Under the pieces are notes generated by a model, which saw only the letters and a program-made list of their open reading frames with translations, had not been told where the DNA came from and did no database searches. DNA of 32,545 bases, taken from positions 1-32,545 of the forward strand of contig JAAYEX010000119.1 in NCBI GenBank assembly GCA_012728535.1, read 5' to 3'. Each line of letters starts with the position of its first letter. The first letter of the stretch is position 1. Shown in pieces: positions 156 to 18,012 of this stretch. The position numbers and the translations under genes were made by a program. This DNA is from Clostridiaceae bacterium. GTDB lineage: Bacteria > Bacillota > Clostridia > Saccharofermentanales > DTU023.

Positions 156-183
156 TTGACGGCATCTCTCTACATGTTATAAT
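156..183 (+). promoter_or_regulatory. SigA/sigma70-type promoter facing murT: TTGACG, 16-nt spacer, TGtTATAAT
   Basis: -35 TTGACG at 156-161. Extended -10 TG at 175-176 and perfect TATAAT at 178-183. Predicts a roughly 140-nt leader before the murT ATG at 329. Confidence 0.45.
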
Positions 184-328: not shown

Positions 329-1762
329 ATGAAGAACCGTAATTTACGTTTCTTAGTAACAATTTTGATTGTTCGTATGACAACTGCTTTCATGAAACTG
401 ATCGGATTAAAGGCAACACACTTCCCGGGCCAGTTGGCTAAACGTCTCTGTCCCGACTTCCTTTCCCGCATAGAAAAACCGGAAACAATCATCGGAATTA
501 CCGGCACTAACGGCAAGACCACCATATCGAATTTAGTAGCTGATATGGCTGATCATTTTGGGCTGGATTTTGCCCATAACGCCTATGGCAGCAATATTGA
601 AGAAGGCATTATCACCACCCTGATTGAAGCCGGAACATTTTTCGGTAAACAAAGAAAGAAACTCGCCTTTCTAGAAATAGATGAGCGCCTGACCCGGGTA
701 ATCTTTCCCGATATAAGCCCCGACTATCTCATAGTGAGCAATCTTTTTCGTGAATCCTATCTCAGAAATGCCCACGCTGAATTTATTTACGGTGTTTTAA
801 GGGAAAACATACCTGCCGGGACCAAGCTGATTCTGAACGCGGATGACATGTTATCTTACAATCTGGCTGAAGGACATGAAGCTGTAAGTTTTTCTATCGC
901 CAGACTGGCCGGCGAACCGCAATTTACCAGGAATTTAATACGCGATGTTGTCCTCTGCCCCAGCTGTCATCAGCCTCTGGAGGATGAATTCATCCGCTAT
1001 CATCACATAGGTCGTGCCCACTGCAACAATTGCTCCTGGCGAAACGGTCCGGCTGATTATGAGCTGACTTTCTTAAAGAAGCAGGATGCTCCTGAAAAAG
1101 AAATCAACGCCAATGAAATGGACGTAGCCGACGAACTGGCGGTTTCATCGCTGTGCTGGCAAACCGGCCCCGGAGAAGAGCTTTTCCCTTTTGCAGGAGA
1201 AAACATGCTGGATCTATACAATTCTCTGGCAGCAATTACTCTTTACTCAGAACTGGGATACACTCCTGAATCCATTGCAGGTGCGCTGGCCGGAGTCGCT
1301 ATCGGGAAATCCCGTAAGGAAATAGTGAAAATCGGACCTCACACTGTTTATCGCATGCTGGCCAAGGGCAAAAATCCGATCGCAGTGACACGTGTTCTGG
1401 ATGCCTTGATGAAGCGTCCGGGTGATAAGTATGTTGTTCTTCTGGTAGATACCAGCGTCAAGGAAATGAGTTCTGAAGACAATGTAGCCTGGATCTTTGA
1501 TGCTGACCTTGATTTGCTGGCAGCTGACGAAGTGAAGCAGATAGTCGTAGCCGGCATGCGGTCTGAAGATATCCGCCTGGCCTTGCTTTTTGCCGGAGTA
1601 GCCGACGAAAAAATCGTCAGCTGCCGTGATAAGGAAAAAAGTGCGGACTTGCTCCGGACCGGGGAAAAAGAAGCGACAATAGCTATTCTCTACGAGCTGT
1701 ACTCAGAAAGCATCTCGCGAAAGCTTGTGAAAAAGCTGCAGCAACGATGGGATGGTAAATAA
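329..1762 (+). CDS. murT: Mur ligase family protein with DUF1727-type C-terminal domain, MurT-like (lipid II isoglutaminyl synthase ligase subunit)
   Basis: P-loop GITGTNGKTT. Four-Cys ribbon CPSCH..17 residues..CNNC, as in S. aureus MurT (CPNCG..CQCG). C-terminal NPIAVTRVL...DNVAWIFDADLD resembles MurT NPAGMNASL...DTSWIYDADFE. Followed 3 nt later by a GatD-like gene. Confidence 0.85.
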   Translation: MKNRNLRFLVTILIVRMTTAFMKLIGLKATHFPGQLAKRLCPDFLSRIEKPETIIGITGTNGKTTISNLVADMADHFGLDFAHNAYGSNIEEGIITTLIEAGTFFGKQRKKLAFLEIDERLTRVIFPDISPDYLIVSNLFRESYLRNAHAEFIYGVLRENIPAGTKLILNADDMLSYNLAEGHEAVSFSIARLAGEPQFTRNLIRDVVLCPSCHQPLEDEFIRYHHIGRAHCNNCSWRNGPADYELTFLKKQDAPEKEINANEMDVADELAVSSLCWQTGPGEELFPFAGENMLDLYNSLAAITLYSELGYTPESIAGALAGVAIGKSRKEIVKIGPHTVYRMLAKGKNPIAVTRVLDALMKRPGDKYVVLLVDTSVKEMSSEDNVAWIFDADLDLLAADEVKQIVVAGMRSEDIRLALLFAGVADEKIVSCRDKEKSADLLRTGEKEATIAILYELYSESISRKLVKKLQQRWDGK

Positions 1763-1765
1763 GAC

Positions 1766-2482
1766 ATGCGTATTGAAATCATCTATCCGGAAATTGCCAA
1801 CCTTCTGGGCGAACATGGCAGCCAGCAACTGCTGCAAAGAACATTTGCAGATGAGGAAATAATCTGCACGAAATTTCCTGACCTGCCTCAATTTTTCACA
1901 AGTAAGATTGACTTCATTTATATGGGAGCGATGACTGAAAGTACCCAGGCCCTGGTTTTGGATCTCTGGAGGCCCTATGCCGGAGACTTCAGACAAAAGA
2001 TTGACAACGGACTGGTCGGCTTTTTTGCAGGTAATGCCCTGGACCTGCTGGGGAGAAATATTGTTTATGAAGAGGCGGATACGATTCAAGCCCTGGGTCT
2101 TTATCCCTTTGACACTCTCTGCAAGCGCTTCGACCGCAAGAACGAGATCGTCCGGGGTAAGTTCCATGAGTTTGAGGTCATGGGCTACCGTTCGCAGTTT
2201 ACCACTCACACAGGTGACAGTTCTGCCTTTCCCTTTATTGAAGTCATAAATGGCAGCGGTATGAATCCGGCGGTGAAAACCGAAGGTGTCGCAGACAGAA
2301 ACTTTTTTGCCACAAGTCTGAACGGGCCTTTTTTGATACTCAATCCCGAATTCACGAAATGGCTGTTCGGCCTTTTCGGCTACAGGGGAGAGCTGCCTTT
2401 TGAGGCAGATCTGCTGGCTGCTGCCGACCTGCGTCGTGAGGATCTCAGCCGCCGTTTTGATAAGAAAAAAGCTCGGAAATAA
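1766..2482 (+). CDS. gatD: GatD/CobQ-type glutamine amidotransferase-like protein, MurT partner, with a degenerate catalytic site
   Basis: Near-gapless alignment by eye to S. aureus GatD, e.g. EGVADRNFFATSLNGPFLILNPEFT against [25 protein letters not shown]. The nucleophile segment is GFFAGNALDLLG against GLTICGGYQFLG. Size (238 aa) and position after murT fit. Confidence 0.75.
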   Translation: MRIEIIYPEIANLLGEHGSQQLLQRTFADEEIICTKFPDLPQFFTSKIDFIYMGAMTESTQALVLDLWRPYAGDFRQKIDNGLVGFFAGNALDLLGRNIVYEEADTIQALGLYPFDTLCKRFDRKNEIVRGKFHEFEVMGYRSQFTTHTGDSSAFPFIEVINGSGMNPAVKTEGVADRNFFATSLNGPFLILNPEFTKWLFGLFGYRGELPFEADLLAAADLRREDLSRRFDKKKARK

Positions 2483-2500: not shown

Positions 2501-2537
2501 AAAAGGCCGGTATCGCTCTGATCCCGGCCTTTTAAAA
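2501..2537. terminator. Bidirectional rho-independent terminator between convergent genes
   Basis: AAAAGGCCGG-tatcgctctgat-CCCGGCCTTTTAAAA: GC-rich stem flanked by an A-run upstream and a T-run downstream. Confidence 0.6.
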
Positions 2538-6469: not shown

Positions 6470-8542
6470 TTATTCTTCTTCGCTGGCTGCCGCAACTATC
6501 TTTTCAGAGATATTCTGCGGAACCGGTTCGTAACGGGCCATTTCTCTGGTGAAATAACCGCGACCCTGGGTCATGGACTTAAGGTCTGTAGCATATTTAG
6601 CGATTTCTGCTGCCGGAACTTCTGCCTCAACTACCTGGAAACCGGGGACAGTATCGGGATTAATACCGAGAATGCTGCCACGACGTTTGCTCAGGTCGCC
6701 CATAATATCACCCAGGAAATCATCCGGGATATGGACTGACAGGGAGTAGATGGGCTCAAGAAGGATCGGTTTTGCCTGAGGCATACCATTGCGGTAGGCC
6801 AGACGTGCTGCCAGTTTAAAGGACATTTCGTTTGAGTCGACGTCATGGTAGGAACCATCTACCAGAGTAGCTCTCAGATTCACTACCGGATAACCGGCCA
6901 GAGGTCCTTCGTCGATCGCTTCACGCAGACCCTTTTCAACAGCCGGGAAATAGTTCTTCGGAACTGAACCGCCGAAAATCTTTTCCTGGAAATCAAGATC
7001 CAAATCATCACCGGGTTCAAACTCAATCCACACATCACCAAACTGTCCATGTCCACCGGTTTGCTTCTTATGGCGGCCCTGAACTTTGACCTTCTGGGTG
7101 ATTGTCTCACGATAAGCTACGCGAGGCTCTGTCAGACGGGCTTCAACGCCGAACTTTCCTTTAAGCTTGGCTGTCAGCACATCGAGCTGAACTTCGCCCA
7201 TTCCGGAAAGCAGGAATTGATGGGTCTCGGGATTGTTCTCTATCTCAAAAACGATATCTTCGTCTTTCAGCCTGACCAGGCCCTGCATGATCTTGTCATC
7301 TTCGCCCTCGTTTACGGCTGATATAGCTAAAGTCAGACTCGGAGTCGGCATTTCCGGCGCTTCGATCTTCAAAGGATTATCGCGGTCTGTGAGTGTATCC
7401 AAAGTGCTGGTGTCATTCAATTTTGTTGTGGCTCCGATGTCACCGGCAATTACAGTATCAACCGAGATCTGCTTTTTACCGCACATGCTGTAAAGACCGT
7501 TGATGCGTTCATCAGTTTCCTTATTGACGTTATAGACTGAACCGGAATCTTTAAAGACACCGGAATATACACGGAAAAGGGAGATTTTACCGACAAAGGG
7601 GTCGACTATTGTTTTGAAAACCAGGGCTGCCAGAGGACCGTCCTGATCGGTCTTGATCTGGAAGCTCTCGCCACTGCGGTTGACCGCTGTCATGGCGTGT
7701 CCGTCTTCAGGTGTGGGGAAGAAACGAATCATCAGGTCCAAGATGTGGGAAACGCCCCAATTGGCATTGGCGGATCCGGCGAAAACAGGATAGAGGGAGG
7801 CTTGTGAAATCGCTTGACGCAAACCGCGCTCTTCTTCTGCAGGAGTGAAGGCTTCACCTTCGAAATATTTCTCCATCAGCTCTTCGTCGCTTTCAGCGAT
7901 CTGTTCGACCAGCTGCTCATGATAGTTCTCAGCTAATTCCTGAAGATCTGAAGACATTTCGGTCGGCTTCATTTCACCTTTATTGCCGGTGAAGCTGTAA
8001 GCCTTCATTGAAACAACATCAACCAATCCGGTCATTGTTTCGCCATCCATGATAGGAAGGGTCATGGGGATTACGAGATGGCCATAGGCTTCTCTCAAGG
8101 CTTCAAGCGTAGCTTCGAAATCTGAGTTGGGCTCATCCATACGGTTGATGAAAAAAGAGATGGGCATCTTCTCATCACCGGCTATACGTACTGCTTTTTC
8201 CACACCGACAGCAACACCGTCTTTGGCTGACATCACGATCAGTACTGCATCGCCCACATCCATACCCAGCATTTGTTCTCCAAGGAAATCAAAGTCACCG
8301 GGTGTATCGATCAGATTTATTTTATTCTTTTTCCACTCAAAGGCAGCCAGGCTGGTGTTGATGGAAATACCGCGACGGATCTCTTCAGCGTCAAAGTCAC
8401 TAACCGTATTGCCTTCGTTGCTCTTCCCCAGACGGTTGACGACTCCTGCGTTAAATAATGCGGCTTCGACAAAAGCGGTTTTGCCGGCGCCGCCATGCCC
8501 CATGACGGTAATATTACGTATATTCTCTCTTGTGAATTTCAT
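6470..8542 (-). CDS. fusA: Elongation factor G paralogue (EF-G-II-like translational GTPase)
   Basis: Full five-domain EF-G layout. G1 GHGGAGKT, G3 DTPGDFDF, G4 NRMD. Domain IV block HKKQTGGHGQFGDVWIEFEP, then domain V. Confidence 0.85.
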   Translation of the reverse strand: MKFTRENIRNITVMGHGGAGKTAFVEAALFNAGVVNRLGKSNEGNTVSDFDAEEIRRGISINTSLAAFEWKKNKINLIDTPGDFDFLGEQMLGMDVGDAVLIVMSAKDGVAVGVEKAVRIAGDEKMPISFFINRMDEPNSDFEATLEALREAYGHLVIPMTLPIMDGETMTGLVDVVSMKAYSFTGNKGEMKPTEMSSDLQELAENYHEQLVEQIAESDEELMEKYFEGEAFTPAEEERGLRQAISQASLYPVFAGSANANWGVSHILDLMIRFFPTPEDGHAMTAVNRSGESFQIKTDQDGPLAALVFKTIVDPFVGKISLFRVYSGVFKDSGSVYNVNKETDERINGLYSMCGKKQISVDTVIAGDIGATTKLNDTSTLDTLTDRDNPLKIEAPEMPTPSLTLAISAVNEGEDDKIMQGLVRLKDEDIVFEIENNPETHQFLLSGMGEVQLDVLTAKLKGKFGVEARLTEPRVAYRETITQKVKVQGRHKKQTGGHGQFGDVWIEFEPGDDLDLDFQEKIFGGSVPKNYFPAVEKGLREAIDEGPLAGYPVVNLRATLVDGSYHDVDSNEMSFKLAARLAYRNGMPQAKPILLEPIYSLSVHIPDDFLGDIMGDLSKRRGSILGINPDTVPGFQVVEAEVPAAEIAKYATDLKSMTQGRGYFTREMARYEPVPQNISEKIVAAASEEE

Positions 8543-12779: not shown

Positions 12780-12985
12780 AAGTACACCTTTCTGATTATT
12801 AACACACAATTAGACACTTATCATATAAATTAACATGTTCAGCTGAAATTTGCTCTTAGAGTCGCAAATATTCACCTTTTCCCACTCCTCTGACGCTATA
12901 AAAAGACTCTTAGTGTATGATAAAATACATAAGTTCAAGAATTAACAATCATAGGGTCCTGACGGACGAAAGAGTGGATATACAG

Positions 12986-15088
12986 ATGAAAAGAACAAAG
13001 TACTGTGGTCATTTCTCTGAGGGAGATGTAGGAAAAAAGGCTTGCGCCTGTGGCTGGGTACAAAGCAAGCGCGATATGGGAGGCGTCATTTTTATCGATC
13101 TAGTCGATCGGGAAGGTGTATTACAGATTGTTTTCAATCCTGAAAATACGGATGCCGATACTTTCGCCCTGGCCGAACGCGTTAGGAATCAATCCGTCCT
13201 GGAAGTAAGCGGCAATTTACGTCTGCGCGATCCTGAGACTGTAAACCCTAAAATTACTACAGGCACAGTTGAGCTCAGAGTTGAGGAAGCCACCATTCTT
13301 TCTGCTGCGGAAACTTTACCTTTTGTGCCTGAAGAAGCCGGCAATGTCAGAGATGATCTCAGATTGCGCTATCGTTATCTGGACCTGCGCCGTAGTGAGC
13401 TGAAAGACAATCTGCGTCTGCGTCATCGTGCCGGTGTCCTGATTCATTCTTTTATGGCGGATAGGGGCTTTATCGAGGTTGAGACTCCGGTACTCGGTAA
13501 AAGCACTCCGGAAGGTGCACGTGATTTCCTCGTGCCCAGCCGTGTTCATCCCGGCAACTTTTTTGCACTGCCGCAGTCACCTCAGATCTACAAGCAATTA
13601 CTCATGGTCAGCGGCTTTGACCGCTATTACCAGATAGCCCGCTGCTTCCGCGACGAAGACCAGCGTGCCGACCGTCAGCTGGAATTCACCCAGCTCGACC
13701 TGGAAATGTCTTTTGTCGAAATGGATGACGTGCTGGAAATTCTGGAAGCACTGATGAAGCACCTGGCACGTGAACTTAAAGGCGTTGAAATCGAAGCTGC
13801 CTTCCCCCGCATGTCCTGGAAGGAAGCTATGGATAAGTACGGTTCCGACAAGCCGGACTTGCGCTTTGACTTGCCCATTATCGACATCAGCGACATCGCT
13901 GAGAAATCCGATTTTTCCATATTCCGCCAGGCTTTAAAGAGCGGTGGCGTGGTACGCGCCATCTGCGTCCCCGGCAAAGCTGATTTCCCGCGATCTGTTA
14001 TAGATGATCTGACCGATTTCGCCATTTCAGAAGGCGCCAAAGGCATGGCCTGGATAGCCTGGCGTGAAGATGGTGAGATATATTCCATCCTTGATAAATA
14101 TTTCACGGAAGATCTGATGCAGGAGTTATTGGAAGCTGTCGGGGCAAAGCCCGGCGACTTCATCCTCTTCTCTGCAGACCGGCTTGATATAGTGCGGCAT
14201 GTCAGCGGTGCTATCCGCCTGCACCTGGCAGACCTGCTTGACCTGCGCACACCTGGTGAACTTAACTTTTCCTTCGTTGTCGACTTTCCCATGTTTGAGT
14301 TCAGCGAAGAAGAGGGGCGTTATGTAGCCCAGCATCATCCTTTCACCATGCCGAAACTTGAAGACCTCCATTATCTGGAAACTGAACCTGAACGCATGGA
14401 ATCCCAGGCCTACGACCTGGTTCTGAACGGCACTGAACTGGGTTCAGGCAGCATCAGAATACACGACAGAGACATTCAGGCACGTGTATTCCGCCAACTC
14501 GGGCTTTCAGAGGAAGATATCCGGGACCGTTTCGGCTTCTTGCTTGATGCCTTCCGTTTCGGAACACCGCCGCACGGTGGATTTGCCCTGGGTCTGGACC
14601 GCCTGATCATGTTGCTGGCGAACGCGCCCTCCCTGCGCGAGGTAATCGCCTTTCCCAAGCTGAGCAACGCTTCTGACCCCCTCACTGATGCGCCTAGTAC
14701 GGTAGACCGGCAACAGCTGGACGAACTGCATATCGTTCTTGCAGCTGATGTGGTTGCCGGCAGCGAGATTTTCAGCGGCAAAAAGGATGCACCCGCAGCA
14801 AAGACCTTCAACCTGGAGCACTTGGAACAGCTGTCCAATATTATGCTGACTGAATCCGAACGGGTCGGTATGCAAACCGAGATTGAAACCCTGATCGATT
14901 TCGCAGATCAAATGGCAGACCTGGATACCAGGGCGGCAGAGCCTACCCGTTCTATGATTACGGAGCATGGGGTGTTTCAGGGAGAAGAGCGTGAGCCCTC
15001 TCTCAGCCAGGAAGATGCTCTGGCAAATGCCGCCGAGTCTGAAGACGGAGCCTTTGTAGTTCCGGCCGCAGTGGAACAGGAGCTATAA
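12986..15088 (+). CDS. aspS: Aspartate--tRNA ligase (bacterial type, GAD insertion) fused to a C-terminal GatC domain
   Basis: OB anticodon-binding domain (GWVQSKRDMGGVIFIDLVDREG). Class II motifs (FRDEDQRADRQLEFTQLD; GTELGSGSIRIH; GGFALGLDR). GAD insertion between them. The ORF continues without a stop through a GatC-like tail. Start set at the ATG at 12986 (MKRTKYCG). Confidence 0.9.
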   Translation: MKRTKYCGHFSEGDVGKKACACGWVQSKRDMGGVIFIDLVDREGVLQIVFNPENTDADTFALAERVRNQSVLEVSGNLRLRDPETVNPKITTGTVELRVEEATILSAAETLPFVPEEAGNVRDDLRLRYRYLDLRRSELKDNLRLRHRAGVLIHSFMADRGFIEVETPVLGKSTPEGARDFLVPSRVHPGNFFALPQSPQIYKQLLMVSGFDRYYQIARCFRDEDQRADRQLEFTQLDLEMSFVEMDDVLEILEALMKHLARELKGVEIEAAFPRMSWKEAMDKYGSDKPDLRFDLPIIDISDIAEKSDFSIFRQALKSGGVVRAICVPGKADFPRSVIDDLTDFAISEGAKGMAWIAWREDGEIYSILDKYFTEDLMQELLEAVGAKPGDFILFSADRLDIVRHVSGAIRLHLADLLDLRTPGELNFSFVVDFPMFEFSEEEGRYVAQHHPFTMPKLEDLHYLETEPERMESQAYDLVLNGTELGSGSIRIHDRDIQARVFRQLGLSEEDIRDRFGFLLDAFRFGTPPHGGFALGLDRLIMLLANAPSLREVIAFPKLSNASDPLTDAPSTVDRQQLDELHIVLAADVVAGSEIFSGKKDAPAAKTFNLEHLEQLSNIMLTESERVGMQTEIETLIDFADQMADLDTRAAEPTRSMITEHGVFQGEEREPSLSQEDALANAAESEDGAFVVPAAVEQEL
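14807..15085 (+). other. gatC: GatC-like domain (amidotransferase subunit C) encoded in frame as the last 93 codons of aspS
   Basis: FNLEHLEQLSNIMLTESE..LIDFADQMADLDTRAAEPT..GVFQGEEREPSLSQEDALANAAESEDGAFVVP aligns end to end with GatC (S. aureus ..EEVEHIANLARLQISPEE..ILDFAKQ..DTEGVEPT..NVLREDK..ALKNAKETEDGQFKVP, from memory). There is no separate gatC ORF before gatA. Confidence 0.8.
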
Positions 15089-16573
15089 ATGTTAAAAGAA
15101 AAAATGACAATCTATGAAATAGGCGCAGCTTTGCGCCGCAAAGACTTTTCTTCCCGCGAACTGACAGAATCAATTCTGGATAAATGCGCCAAGCAGGAAG
15201 ATCGGATCGGCGCTTACATCACTCTGACTGAAAAGGAAGCTCTGCAGCAAGCTGACCGGGTAGACAAGCTTCTGGCCGCGGGGGCTGAGCTGCCGCTGCT
15301 GGCAGGTATTCCGCTGGCAGTCAAGGACAATATCGCCGTTAGGGGTATTCCCCTGACAGCAGGTTCAAAAATGCTGGAAACTTTCCGTCCGCCATACAGC
15401 GCATTTGTCTGGGACGAACTTGTAAAAGCTCAGGCAGTCCTGGTCGGAAAAAGCAACATGGATGAATTCGGCATGGGTTTTTCCACAGAAAACTCATACT
15501 TTAAAACGACAAGAAACCCGCATGACCTGACCCGCATTCCCGGCGGCAGTACGGGTGGGTCCGCAGCAGCTGTGGCGAGCGGTGAAGCAATCTATGCTCT
15601 TGGTACTGATACCGGCGGTTCAATCCGCCAGCCTGCTGCACATTGTGGCGTCGTCGGTCTGCGCCCCAGCTATGGCCTTGTTTCTCGCCGTGGAGTCTCC
15701 GCACTGGCTTCTTCCATGGATACGGTCGGTCCTCTGACCAGAACCGTCCGCGACAACATGATTGTCCTTTCGGCGATCACAGCCCGGGATGCCAAAGACT
15801 GCTCTTCCAGCAGACATGTTTTCAAACTTGATGAAGATCTTTTAAAGCAAGACAGTTCAGAGACCAAGCCCCTGACCGGTATCAGCATAGGCTGGCCGGA
15901 GCAGTGTTTTGATATCGAGCTGGAGGAAGACGTCAGGCGGGGTCTTGAAGCCGCTTTGAAAGTTTTCGAATCACTGGGAGCGACAATCAAAAAGCTGCAA
16001 ATCAGCTCGCTGAATGCCGCCCTTTCCGCCTACTACATTCTAATGACCGCTGAAGCAGCTTCAAACCTGGGACGCTTTGATGGTGTCCATTACGGTTACC
16101 GCAGCCCCGGGGCTGAAAAGTTGGAAGACCTTTATATCAACTCCCGCTCCGAAGCTTTCGGCTATGAGGTTAAGCGTCGTATCCTGCTGGGCAACTTTGC
16201 ACTTTCTGAAGAATACTACGAGGACTATTTCGTAAAGGCGCAGAGGGTCCGCACGGTTGTCATCCGCGAGTTCACAGGACTGTTGGAAGACTGTGACCTG
16301 CTTTTCATGCCTGTGACCACTTCAACGGCAGGAAAAATCGGTTCAGCTCCGAAAAATCCGGTCGATCTGTACCGCGGCGACATCTTCACAACGCCGGTAT
16401 CAGTGGCCGGGCTGCCCGCACTGTCACTGCCCTGCGGCAAAGATTCACAGGGTCTGCCTATCGGCATGCAGCTGGTCGGCAGGCAATTCGATGAGGCTTT
16501 GCTCTATCGCGTCGGAGCTGCTTACGAAGACCGGCATAGCCCGGCTTTTGAACTGGCGGAGGTAAAAGCATGA
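15089..16573 (+). CDS. gatA: Asp-tRNA(Asn)/Glu-tRNA(Gln) amidotransferase subunit A
   Basis: Amidase signature AVKDNI ... [14 protein letters not shown] ... [12 protein letters not shown]. The ATG directly abuts the aspS TAA. The stop overlaps the gatB ATG (ATGA). Confidence 0.92.
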
Positions 16574-18012
16574 GCATGAAAAACCACAAAAAGTACGAAG
16601 CTGTCATTGGCCTGGAAGTTCACGTAGAGCTCAAGACCAAATACAAAATTTTCTGTGACTGCGAGGTCACTTTCGGCGAAGAGCCCAATACTCATGTCTG
16701 CCCGGTCTGCCTGGCAATGCCCGGGACTCTTCCTGTTTTAAATCATGAGGTGGTTGAATTCGCAGTACGCGCCGGCCTGGTGACTCATTGCGAGATTTCG
16801 CATTCCTAACGCATCGACCGAAAAAACTATTTCTACCCTGACCTGGCCAAGGCCTACCAGCTGTCACAAGCTGATGAGCCGCTTTGCCTGAACGGCTATG
16901 TGGATGTAAGCACAGAAGATGGAAGATCCAGAATCCGTGTTAACCGCATACACATCGAGGAAGATGCCGGCAAACTGATTCACACCGACAAAGGCAGCTC
17001 GCTGGTTGATATGAACCGTGGCGGTGTGCCTCTGATTGAGATTGTTTCTGAGCCGGATATTCACTCGGCAGATGAAGCTGTCGCCTACCTGCGGAAATTG
17101 CGCTCTCTGGTTCGCTACACCGGCATTTCCGATGGCCGCATGAACGAAGGTTCCCTGCGCTGTGACGTCAACCTTTCTATCAGAGAAAGGGGCACAGAAC
17201 GATTGGGCACCCGGGTCGAGATGAAAAACATCAACTCTTTCAACTATGTCGCCAAGGCTATTGAAAGTGAGTTCGCCCGTCAGGTTTCCATCCTGGATGA
17301 AGGTGGAATAATCACCCAGGAAACGCGCCGCTATGATGAAAAGACTGATCAGACAACAGTCATGCGCAGCAAGGAAGATGCGGCGGACTATCGTTACTTC
17401 CCGGATCCTGATCTCTGTCGAGTCGAAGTAAGTGATGCAGAAATAGCAGAGATACGTGCCTCTATCCCTAAAATGGCTGAGGAGCGCAAAGAAGAGTATA
17501 TCGAAAGATTCTCTCTCAGTGATTATGAAGCCGAGCGCCTGACTGAAGACAAGGTTGTGGCGGATTTCTTTGAAACTGCAGCTAATGAGAGCCGCTATCC
17601 CAAAGTTCTGTCAAGTCTGATCATGACAGAACTGTCTCCTCTCTTTGATGATGAGGGAGACTCTGTGTTGCCGCTTGAAGCCCTCAGCCTGGCAAAACTT
17701 GCCGACCTCCTGGGTGATGAAAAAATCAACAGCAACACCGGAAAAAAAGTCCTGCGCCTGCTATTGGAAGATGACTTTGATCCGGAAGCTTACGTCAGAG
17801 AAGAAAATCTGTTGCAGATCACGGATCGCGAAGAGCTCCTGGAGATAGTGGAAAGTGCTCTTGCAGCTAACCGGAAGGCAGTTGAAGATTACCGCAAGGG
17901 TAAGGAAACTGCGATTAAAGCAATCATCGGACGTGTGATGAAAGAAACCTCCGGCCGCGCCTACCCGCTGCTGGTTGAAGAAATGATACTTGAAAAGATC
18001 AGTGAAAATTAA
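16570..18012 (+). pseudogene. gatB: Asp-tRNA(Asn)/Glu-tRNA(Gln) amidotransferase subunit B interrupted by one in-frame TAA (16807-16809)
   Basis: ORFs 16570..16809 and 16900..18012 share one frame. Reading through gives ..[26 protein letters not shown].., the canonical GatB block. The rest is intact ([45 protein letters not shown], YqeY-like tail). It could instead be an assembly error or readthrough. Confidence 0.85.

Follow-up and report, generated by a model that had tools for sequence, protein, structure and literature searches.

A MurT/GatD-like pair of Clostridia with a GatD-like subunit lacking the glutaminase residues

Staphylococci, streptococci, and mycobacteria depend on the essential MurT/GatD complex, which is understood to work by coupling a glutaminase to a ligase. 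A two-gene locus from a Clostridiaceae bacterium raises the question of what such a complex might do once its glutaminase has been dismantled. The locus lies on contig JAAYEX010000119.1 (the whole 32,545-nucleotide stretch analyzed is referred to as the window), where the open reading frame (ORF) listing places a murT-like gene (329..1762, + strand), a 477-aa ORF for an ATP-dependent Mur-type ligase subunit, only 3 nt upstream of a co-directional gatD-like gene (1766..2482, + strand), a 238-aa ORF for a protein with the class I glutamine amidotransferase fold but lacking its catalytic machinery. Judging from its residues, the GatD-like partner is unable to hydrolyze glutamine via the known Cys-His-Asp mechanism. 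The explanation we favor, and to which we give about an even chance, is that the pair amidates the D-iso-glutamate of lipid II in an ammonia-dependent manner, with the GatD-like protein serving as a non-catalytic scaffold.

The glutaminase site of the GatD-like subunit

A phmmer search of PDB sequences with the GatD-like protein recovered S. aureus GatD (5n9m, 6gs2) at an E-value of 2.5e-8. The two align at ~20% identity with a single 4-residue gap across residues 46–222, and the original prediction, which was made from the DNA letters and described the alignment as almost gapless, was a fair one in this respect. The alignment sets GLTICGGYQFLG opposite GFFAGNALDLLG and the His segment opposite TSLNGPFLILN. 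The same positions were followed in a joint alignment of 56 canonical GatDs of Clostridia, drawn from 300 sampled genomes of the same phylum, and 82 members of the window's own family, here termed pseudo GatDs. Within the former nucleophile elbow (G85-F-F-A-G89-N90-A-L-D93-L-L-G96; 2018..2053, + strand), the phmmer alignment, the joint alignment, and a reading of the DNA agree that the Gly89 codon GGT at 2030–2032 replaces the nucleophile Cys (S. aureus C94). This column is Cys in 100% of the canonical GatDs, while the pseudo GatDs have Gly (87%) or Ala (12%). The same three sources place Asn186 at the position of the catalytic His (S. aureus H189, of the HGP motif), and its AAC codon (2321..2323, + strand) is present in the DNA exactly as had been claimed. 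Here the canonical GatDs are again invariant (His 100%), whereas the pseudo family is dominated by Leu (38%), Ile (26%), and Val (23%); the relatives nearest to the window have Asn or Thr. The Cys and His columns are therefore where they had been supposed to be, and their loss extends across the clade.

The third triad residue is contributed by the ligase subunit. In S. aureus, MurT D349 completes the glutaminase triad, and the D349N mutant is severely impaired and loses glutamine-dependent activity (PMC6113224). HMMER alignment of the window's MurT-like protein to S. aureus MurT identifies the segment S381-S-E-D-N385-V-A-W388 (1469..1492, + strand) as the replacement for the canonical A-D-G-R-D-x-S-W, with N385 occupying the column of S. 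aureus D349 and S. pneumoniae D355. When 57 canonical MurTs were compared column by column with 78 pseudo-associated MurTs, this position was Asp in 100% of the former and Asn in 79% of the latter, which also carry a 3-residue insertion upstream of it. Two of the natural triad substitutions thus parallel S. aureus mutants, as Cys to Gly corresponds to C94G (PMC3266927) and the MurT Asp to Asn to D349N (PMC6113224).

The losses extend well beyond the triad. The GGG stretch assigned as the oxyanion hole of GatD (PMC6085368) is replaced in the joint alignment by G54-A55-M56 (1925..1933, + strand); canonical GatDs have Gly in 100%, 95%, and 93% at these columns, compared to G99%, P54/A28%, and M85% in the pseudo family, giving a consensus of G-[PA]-M. 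The canonical F-E-N-H-x-G, of which E142, N143, H144, and G146 are each 100% conserved, is likewise replaced by Y141-R-S-Q-F-T146 (2186..2203, + strand), with F-[KR]-S-Q-F-T as the family pattern (Q 84%, F145 98%, and T or S at the last position). At columns 166–170 the canonical N-N-G-x-D of the GNNGxD motif has been lost from the pseudo family, and the canonical Y-Q of columns 92–93 has given way to a variable residue followed by [ED]. No triad position is intact, as Cys has become Gly, His has become Asn, and the MurT Asp has become Asn. With the oxyanion hole and two further invariant GatD motifs lost as well, the proposal that the partner is unable to hydrolyze glutamine by the known mechanism holds, and on stronger grounds than those first given for it.

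Family-level annotation is in keeping with this divergence. No Pfam family matches the GatD-like protein, with GATase_3 (PF07685) absent at E 0.01, although many of its gut-clade relatives do have a precomputed PF07685 hit; the protein atlas labels it only as "GATase_3-like, Bacillota", and it falls below both NCBIfam GatD equivalogs (NF052463, 38 bits vs. a cut-off of 450; NF045636, 32 vs. 400). With the defining glutaminase features lost and the equivalog cut-offs failed, the sequence evidence indicates that the pair should not be annotated as a glutamine-hydrolyzing isoglutaminyl synthase. Current labels such as "hypothetical protein" or "CobQ-like glutamine amidotransferase" hide the dead-glutaminase form.

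The residues that took the place of the glutaminase site are themselves highly conserved among the pseudo GatDs: N90 and N12 are at 100%, E9, E58, Q61, and R124 at 99%, and F145 at 98%. R124 (2135..2137, + strand) lies one column past the canonical Arg (S. aureus R128, numbered as the query residue plus 5).

Might a different set of residues have assumed the catalytic function? The statement that the protein contains no cysteine is accurate for the 12-residue elbow segment at 2018–2053 and inaccurate for the protein as a whole, which has one Cys, C119, outside that segment. A cryptic glutaminase could in principle employ C119 together with H17 or H148, as the 26 closest homologs all have C119 and H17 and nearly all have H148, and a model of the complex places residues 12–18 and 121–128 near the former pocket and the subunit interface. 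Across the 82 pseudo GatDs, however, position 119 is Arg in 72% and Cys in 23%, position 17 is His in 24%, and position 148 is His in 23%, which confines these residues to the window's clade. C119, H17, and H148 were accordingly rejected as catalytic residues for the family. A Gly at the nucleophile elbow, the missing oxyanion hole, and the Asn in place of the MurT Asp also speak against such an activity, and we consider it very improbable.

The ligase subunit and the predicted complex

The MurT-like protein is readily recognizable as a member of its family. It matches Pfam MurT_C (PF08353, DUF1727) at 64.7 bits against a cut-off of 25 (9.3e-18), and an HMMER comparison with PDB sequences matches it to the S. 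aureus MurT structures 7q8e and 6gs2 at an E-value of 8e-42. Its scores for the NCBIfam MurT equivalogs NF052464 and NF045635 (154 and 121 bits) are below the cut-off of 800. The ATP-binding P-loop G59-T-N-G-K63-T-T65 (503..523, + strand) is 100% conserved in canonical and pseudo-associated MurTs alike, and the corresponding K59A mutant of S. pneumoniae MurT is inactive (PMC6085368). The acceptor-carboxylate motif G87-S88-N89 (587..595, + strand) corresponds to S. pneumoniae G83-A84-N85, with N89 at 100% in both groups; mutation of its S. pneumoniae counterpart (N85A) also inactivates the enzyme (PMC6085368). E116, D118, and E119 of the segment E116-I-D118-E119-R120 (674..688, + strand) are the Mg-binding acidic residues and are 100% conserved in both groups, D118 and E119 being equivalent to S. 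pneumoniae D112 and E113. The four-Cys zinc-ribbon insertion (C210, C213, C232, and C235; 956..1033, + strand) is conserved at 98–100% in both groups as well. The P-loop, the ribbon, and the DUF1727 tail are therefore retained, as had been recognized from the translation. The positions conserved at 90% or more in both groups comprise the P-loop, G87-x-N89, E116/D118/E119, R141, R146, the four Cys, R329, K346/N349/P350, W388, and D391.

Set against this common core are two further family-specific changes. The acidic Mg-binding residues are followed by R120 in 78/78 pseudo-associated MurTs, whereas canonical MurTs (n=57) have Ala (79%) or Gly (19%) at this position. In addition, the interface loop R141-E-S-Y-L-R-N-A-H-A-E-F-I153 (749..787, + strand) has been rewritten relative to the canonical R-D-Q-L-D-R-Y-G-E, in which Q143, D145, and E149 are each 100% conserved. 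The family consensus for this loop is R-[DE]-S-x-x-R-N-A-H-x-E-F-I, with S143 at 99%, N147 at 100%, A148 and H149 at 95%, E151 at 92%, and I153 at 99%.

Structure prediction places these changes opposite one another. The AlphaFold model of the GatD-like protein (pLDDT 92.7) locates Gly89 at the strand-to-helix nucleophile elbow, between a strand at 85–87 and a helix at 89–95, and its best structural matches are the GatD chains 6h5e, 6gs2, 6fqb, and 9sq9 (TM 0.73–0.81, ~20% identity). When the two proteins were modeled together, the prediction reached an ipSAE of 0.91 compared to 0.00 for the best control, with a partner pLDDT of 92 and at least 95% of contacts agreeing between runs. In the calibration, 58 of 80 solved complexes attained the mark, as did 2 of 110 mismatched pairs, although MurT/GatD complexes have already been solved and the pass may partly reflect likeness to them. 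From this model we infer a physical complex between the two proteins. The modeled interface joins MurT-like residues 144–152 and 379–388 to GatD-like residues 55–59, 124–128, 141–145, and 186–188, which are precisely the segments that have been remodeled on both sides. MurT ribbon residues 203–216 lie within it as well. The predicted interface crosses the former glutaminase pocket and the facing MurT loop.

The nearest characterized systems are the MurT/GatD complexes of S. aureus, S. pneumoniae, S. pyogenes, and M. tuberculosis (EC 6.3.5.13; 6gs2, 6h5e, 6fqb, 9sq9). They share with the window's pair the two-gene operon order, the P-loop, acceptor Asn, Mg-binding acidic pair, Cys4 ribbon, and MurT_C of the ligase, the fold of the partner, and heterodimerization via what are predicted to be the same surfaces. 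They differ in that the Cys, His, GGG, FENHxG, GNNGxD, and MurT triad Asp are all replaced here, the interface loop is rewritten, and Arg120 has been gained. The Mur ligases MurC–MurF and Mpl have the same central and C-terminal domain fold and employ acyl-phosphate chemistry, but they add amino acids rather than ammonia, act upon UDP-linked rather than lipid-linked precursors, and are without a Cys4 ribbon, a MurT_C-type domain, or a GATase-like partner; matches of Mur ligase families to the MurT-like protein were confined to the surroundings of the P-loop.

Distribution and the replacement of canonical pairs

If the glutaminase has been lost, is the locus simply in decay? Both genes have low dN/dS values (0.07–0.08 for gatD-like and 0.08–0.09 for murT-like, against relatives of 78–89% identity). 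A MurT-like gene is found directly upstream and on the same strand in 79 of 80 loci, the sole exception being cut by a contig end, and four independent single-chain fusions of MurT to a pseudo GatD (698–758 aa) occur in separate 50%-identity clusters. Because the dN/dS is low, the replacement residues are themselves 95–100% conserved, fusions exist, and the complex model passes its controls, both genes are functional and under purifying selection rather than decaying. Fusion is also found among canonical systems: at L162 and L163 (G363, G371), a canonical MurT and GatD with Cys, His, GGG, and FENH all present share one open frame of 755–822 aa.

The pseudo form is widespread. An exhaustive homolog search returned 806 cluster representatives at E-values up to 1e-3, 328 of them at up to 1e-10; the His is missing from all of the best 150 homologs and the Cys from all except one (single outliers). 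Carriers number at least 476 species genomes among the Saccharofermentanales, Oscillospirales, and gut Clostridia. Their record titles include metagenome-assembled genomes labeled Mageeibacillus, Saccharofermentanales, and Clostridiales DTU032/DTU023, anaerobic-digester bins, Acutalibacter, Neglectibacter, Oscillospiraceae, uncultured gut Clostridia, and one isolate, Coprococcus sp. OM04-5BH. By the same titles, the sources of the carriers are biogas reactors, anaerobic membrane bioreactors, and guts, which are ammonium-rich habitats. In a maximum-likelihood tree (a quick search, unrooted), a branch with SH-aLRT support of 96 separates the 42 pseudo rows from the rest, and on this sequence evidence the pseudo form defines a single clade. 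A link to Actinobacteria with group B walls through the high-GC members P0143 and P0100 was considered, and none was established; the contig of P0143 has a desulfoferrodoxin gene, which fits an anaerobe, and that of P0100 carries tandem pairs.

Does the pseudo pair stand beside a canonical one, or in its place? No second, canonical pair was found in the window's genome (87% complete), which has one MurT_C match and zero GATase_3 matches, and the five same-genus genomes checked each have one gene, of the pseudo type. Among 50 carrier genomes searched there was no canonical Cys/His GatD; 44 have this gene only, and the other six add further Cys-less copies. Within the phylum sample as a whole, the canonical GatD is the commoner form (57 of 61 retrieved). 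Among 40 relatives examined, canonical and Cys-less types alternate, with the pseudo type in five of six same-genus genomes. Within a single GTDB genus, each genome has one type: canonical in G384, that of the window in G387 and G390, and a second Cys-less form in G375 and G381. Because pseudo and canonical pairs mutually replace each other among close relatives, their distribution suggests a shared cellular role for the variants and argues against side-activity paralogs. Other class I amidotransferases are still encoded in the window's genome, so the loss is specific to the MurT/GatD enzyme.

This distribution also speaks against a third possibility raised at the outset, namely a substrate outside of peptidoglycan synthesis, such as another carboxylate-bearing polymer or a metabolite, in which case the pair would be a diverged relative rather than a replacement. 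Several features could be cited for it: the NCBIfam equivalog scores are far under their cut-offs (154 vs. 800; 38 vs. 450), the MurT C-terminal segment proposed to touch the stem peptide is altered, and the window has no cell-wall gene cluster around the pair. Yet this is the sole MurT/GatD-like system of the window's genome and of 44 of the 50 carriers, it alternates with the canonical pair among close relatives, and it has kept the acceptor-carboxylate Asn together with the entire ligase core. Canonical murT-gatD likewise lies outside the dcw cluster. In the gut clade the pair adjoins a PASTA kinase/PP2C phosphatase module, having mnmA on one side and rlmN, a PP2C phosphatase, and a PASTA Ser/Thr kinase on the other in ~24 of the 80 loci (e.g., L002, 6573–12523), a proximity to a cell-wall-sensing module that is only positional. 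The neighbors in the window's clade are rpoB, a PPIase, a HAD hydrolase, and a CorC-type transporter. We consequently regard a substrate outside of the cell wall as unlikely.

Candidate nucleophiles, related variants, and the flanking DNA

What, then, would the ligase attach, and to which carboxylate? Under the amidation reading, the two genes would encode an obligate MurT/GatD-type heterodimer, in which the MurT-like subunit would employ ATP-dependent Mur-ligase chemistry to activate, as an acyl-phosphate, a carboxylate that would most probably be the D-iso-glutamate alpha-carboxylate (position 2) of a lipid-linked peptidoglycan precursor. The GatD-like subunit would be a dead pseudo-glutaminase retained as the structural partner that MurT needs, with its former glutamine pocket presumably packed against the co-remodeled MurT loop. 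The nitrogen would come not from glutamine but most likely from the free ammonia of an ammonium-rich anaerobic habitat, and the product would be D-iso-glutamine, the same as that of the canonical enzyme. The remodeled loop and Arg120 might then be adaptations to direct ammonia uptake; for example, Arg120 could conceivably lower the pKa of bound ammonium. We infer lipid II D-iso-Glu as the substrate and ammonia as the donor.

The idea of a scaffolded, ammonia-using ligase had been offered as one of several options, and it has a direct experimental precedent. The engineered S. aureus MurT/GatD_C94G complex has lost glutamine-dependent activity and retains NH3-dependent lipid II amidation at pH 8.5, while S. 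aureus MurT without GatD shows no activity whatever the donor (Muench et al. 2012, PMC3266927). Ammonia-dependent activity in that system therefore requires a partner, and a dead GatD suffices as one. Its nucleophile change from Cys to Gly is the one found here, but the engineered protein has this single change, whereas the natural family has remodeled the entire pocket and the facing MurT loop under purifying selection. An analogy of principle is provided by carbamoyl-phosphate synthetase I of ureotelic vertebrates, which retains a glutaminase-type domain without the catalytic Cys and uses free ammonia, although it is a single polypeptide with an unrelated synthetase and substrate.

Several observations weigh against the amidation reading. 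The S. aureus complex uses ammonia at pH 8.5 only, and not at pH 7.5 (PMC3266927), and a natural ammonia-dependent enzyme would need further adaptations. The remodeled pocket is non-degenerate (N90, E58, Q61, R124, F145, the MurT loop, and R120 are conserved) and could be a site for a different ligand. The stretch matching the S. aureus motif written DNADD, for which a contact with stem-peptide residue 3 has been proposed (PMC6113224), is altered in the MurT-like protein, and substrate recognition may thus differ. Two pseudo-type pairs are found in tandem on L174 (the contig of P0100) and on G362 (C45:49298–52296) and on separate contigs in G385, and the tandem arrangement hints at diverged specificities. 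Peptidoglycan data were looked for in the species description nearest to the window's clade and were not found.

Alternatively, the same complex and chemistry might serve a different nucleophile, such as glycine, a D-amino acid, a diamino acid, or a polyamine, joined to the alpha-carboxylate of D-iso-Glu or to some other carboxylate of the precursor in the manner of the amino acid additions by MurC–MurF and Mpl. The remodeled pocket, the loop, and R120 would then constitute the nucleophile binding site, which would agree with their 95–100% conservation, too high for noise. Arg120 adjoins the Mg site in all Cys/His-less types examined and could hold a carboxylate, the glutamine-pocket Arg is retained one column along as R124, and duplicated tandem pairs occur. 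The mutual exclusion with the canonical pair would fit equally, since the carboxylate to be modified would be the same for both systems. It is reportedly established peptidoglycan chemistry, ascribed to Schleifer and Kandler in 1972, that the alpha-carboxyl of D-Glu can bear glycine, glycine amide, diamines, or cross-bridges. On the other hand, most of the newly conserved residues lie within the modeled protein–protein interface, which is enough to explain their conservation, and we know of no carrier with position-2-substituted peptidoglycan. Clustering of the flanking ORFs of 80 loci also found no conserved racemase, amino acid ligase, or other nucleophile-supplying neighbor beside the pair, yielding housekeeping genes and antisense shadow ORFs only. 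A different nucleophile therefore seems to us a possible but distinctly less probable alternative to amidation from ammonia. In its most general form, it would cast every Cys/His-less pair of Clostridia with an Arg following the Mg-binding D-E not as an amidase but as a ligase joining an amino acid or diamine to the D-iso-glutamate alpha-carboxylate, a proposal we put forward only tentatively. If it were true, gut and digester anaerobes would build a position-2-substituted peptidoglycan undescribed for them.

The sequence "E-x-D-E-R" was also found in the MurT-like partners of three further, more divergent Cys-less GatD types of the same order or phylum, and Arg at position 120 is present in every Cys/His-less type examined and in none of the canonical MurTs. 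This covarying residue is a simple sequence marker for distinguishing glutaminase-dead from canonical systems. The divergent types, at least three in number, are represented by L157, L158, and L151 (G375, G381, G345); L032, L152, and L153; and L167 and L168 (G358, G367). In the G358/G367 type, the GatD-like protein keeps its His and the MurT-like partner is without the four-Cys ribbon.

A separate kind of variant was encountered within the canonical GatDs. At L042 (G178 contig C8, which has two tandem murT-gatD pairs) and at L069 (G252), the nucleophile Cys alone has changed to Gly ("LAIGGSYQLLG" and "LAIGLGFQVLG"), with the His, FENHxG, GNNxxD, and the canonical MurT motifs (DEG/DEA, RDQLDR, DG[RT]D) retained; L069 and one of the L042 copies also matched the GGG oxyanion stretch. 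These are natural occurrences of the engineered S. aureus C94G change, and on the tree they arose twice. Their MurT partners have DEG or DEA, and not "E-x-D-E-R".

We found no paper in the literature on a natural Cys-less GatD or an ammonia-dependent MurT, and a survey that reports murT-gatD as widespread in Clostridiales does not mention such variants (PMC6085368). A large natural family that has dispensed with the glutaminase while keeping the subunit offers a test of the roles of GatD beyond ammonia supply and of the nucleophile path to the acyl-phosphate. It is also conceivable that many gut Clostridia amidate their walls from free ammonium or have some other substituent at position 2. Hosts recognize muropeptides differently according to whether D-iso-Glu is amidated, and muramyl dipeptide, the NOD2 ligand, carries iso-Gln.

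The DNA flanking the pair contains a few candidate regulatory elements. A sigma-70-like promoter sequence, TTGACG-16-TATAAT with an extended TG (156..183, + strand; 11/12 in a consensus scan, and a pattern match only), is located ~145 nt 5' of the murT-like start. Downstream, a perfect 10-bp hairpin read from the sequence (AAAAGGCCGG / CCGGCCTTTT, with a 13-nt loop; 2501..2533, assigned to neither strand) is a candidate bidirectional terminator between the convergent gatD-like and PPIase genes, the latter ending at 2564; the terminator scan, with its loop limit of 8 nt, had skipped it. A minus-strand ORF at 1703..2209 (168 aa) was dismissed as an antisense shadow of the gatD-like gene, and similar shadows recur over the murT-like gene in related loci.

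Elsewhere in the window, at 12917–15088 and 15089–18012, Pfam matches reveal an in-frame fusion of an AspRS with a GatC domain, followed by gatA, and the next ORF, presumably gatB, is listed at only 370 aa. On the minus strand at 6470–8542, Pfam also identifies an EF-G family protein with all five domains, standing alone outside of any str operon.

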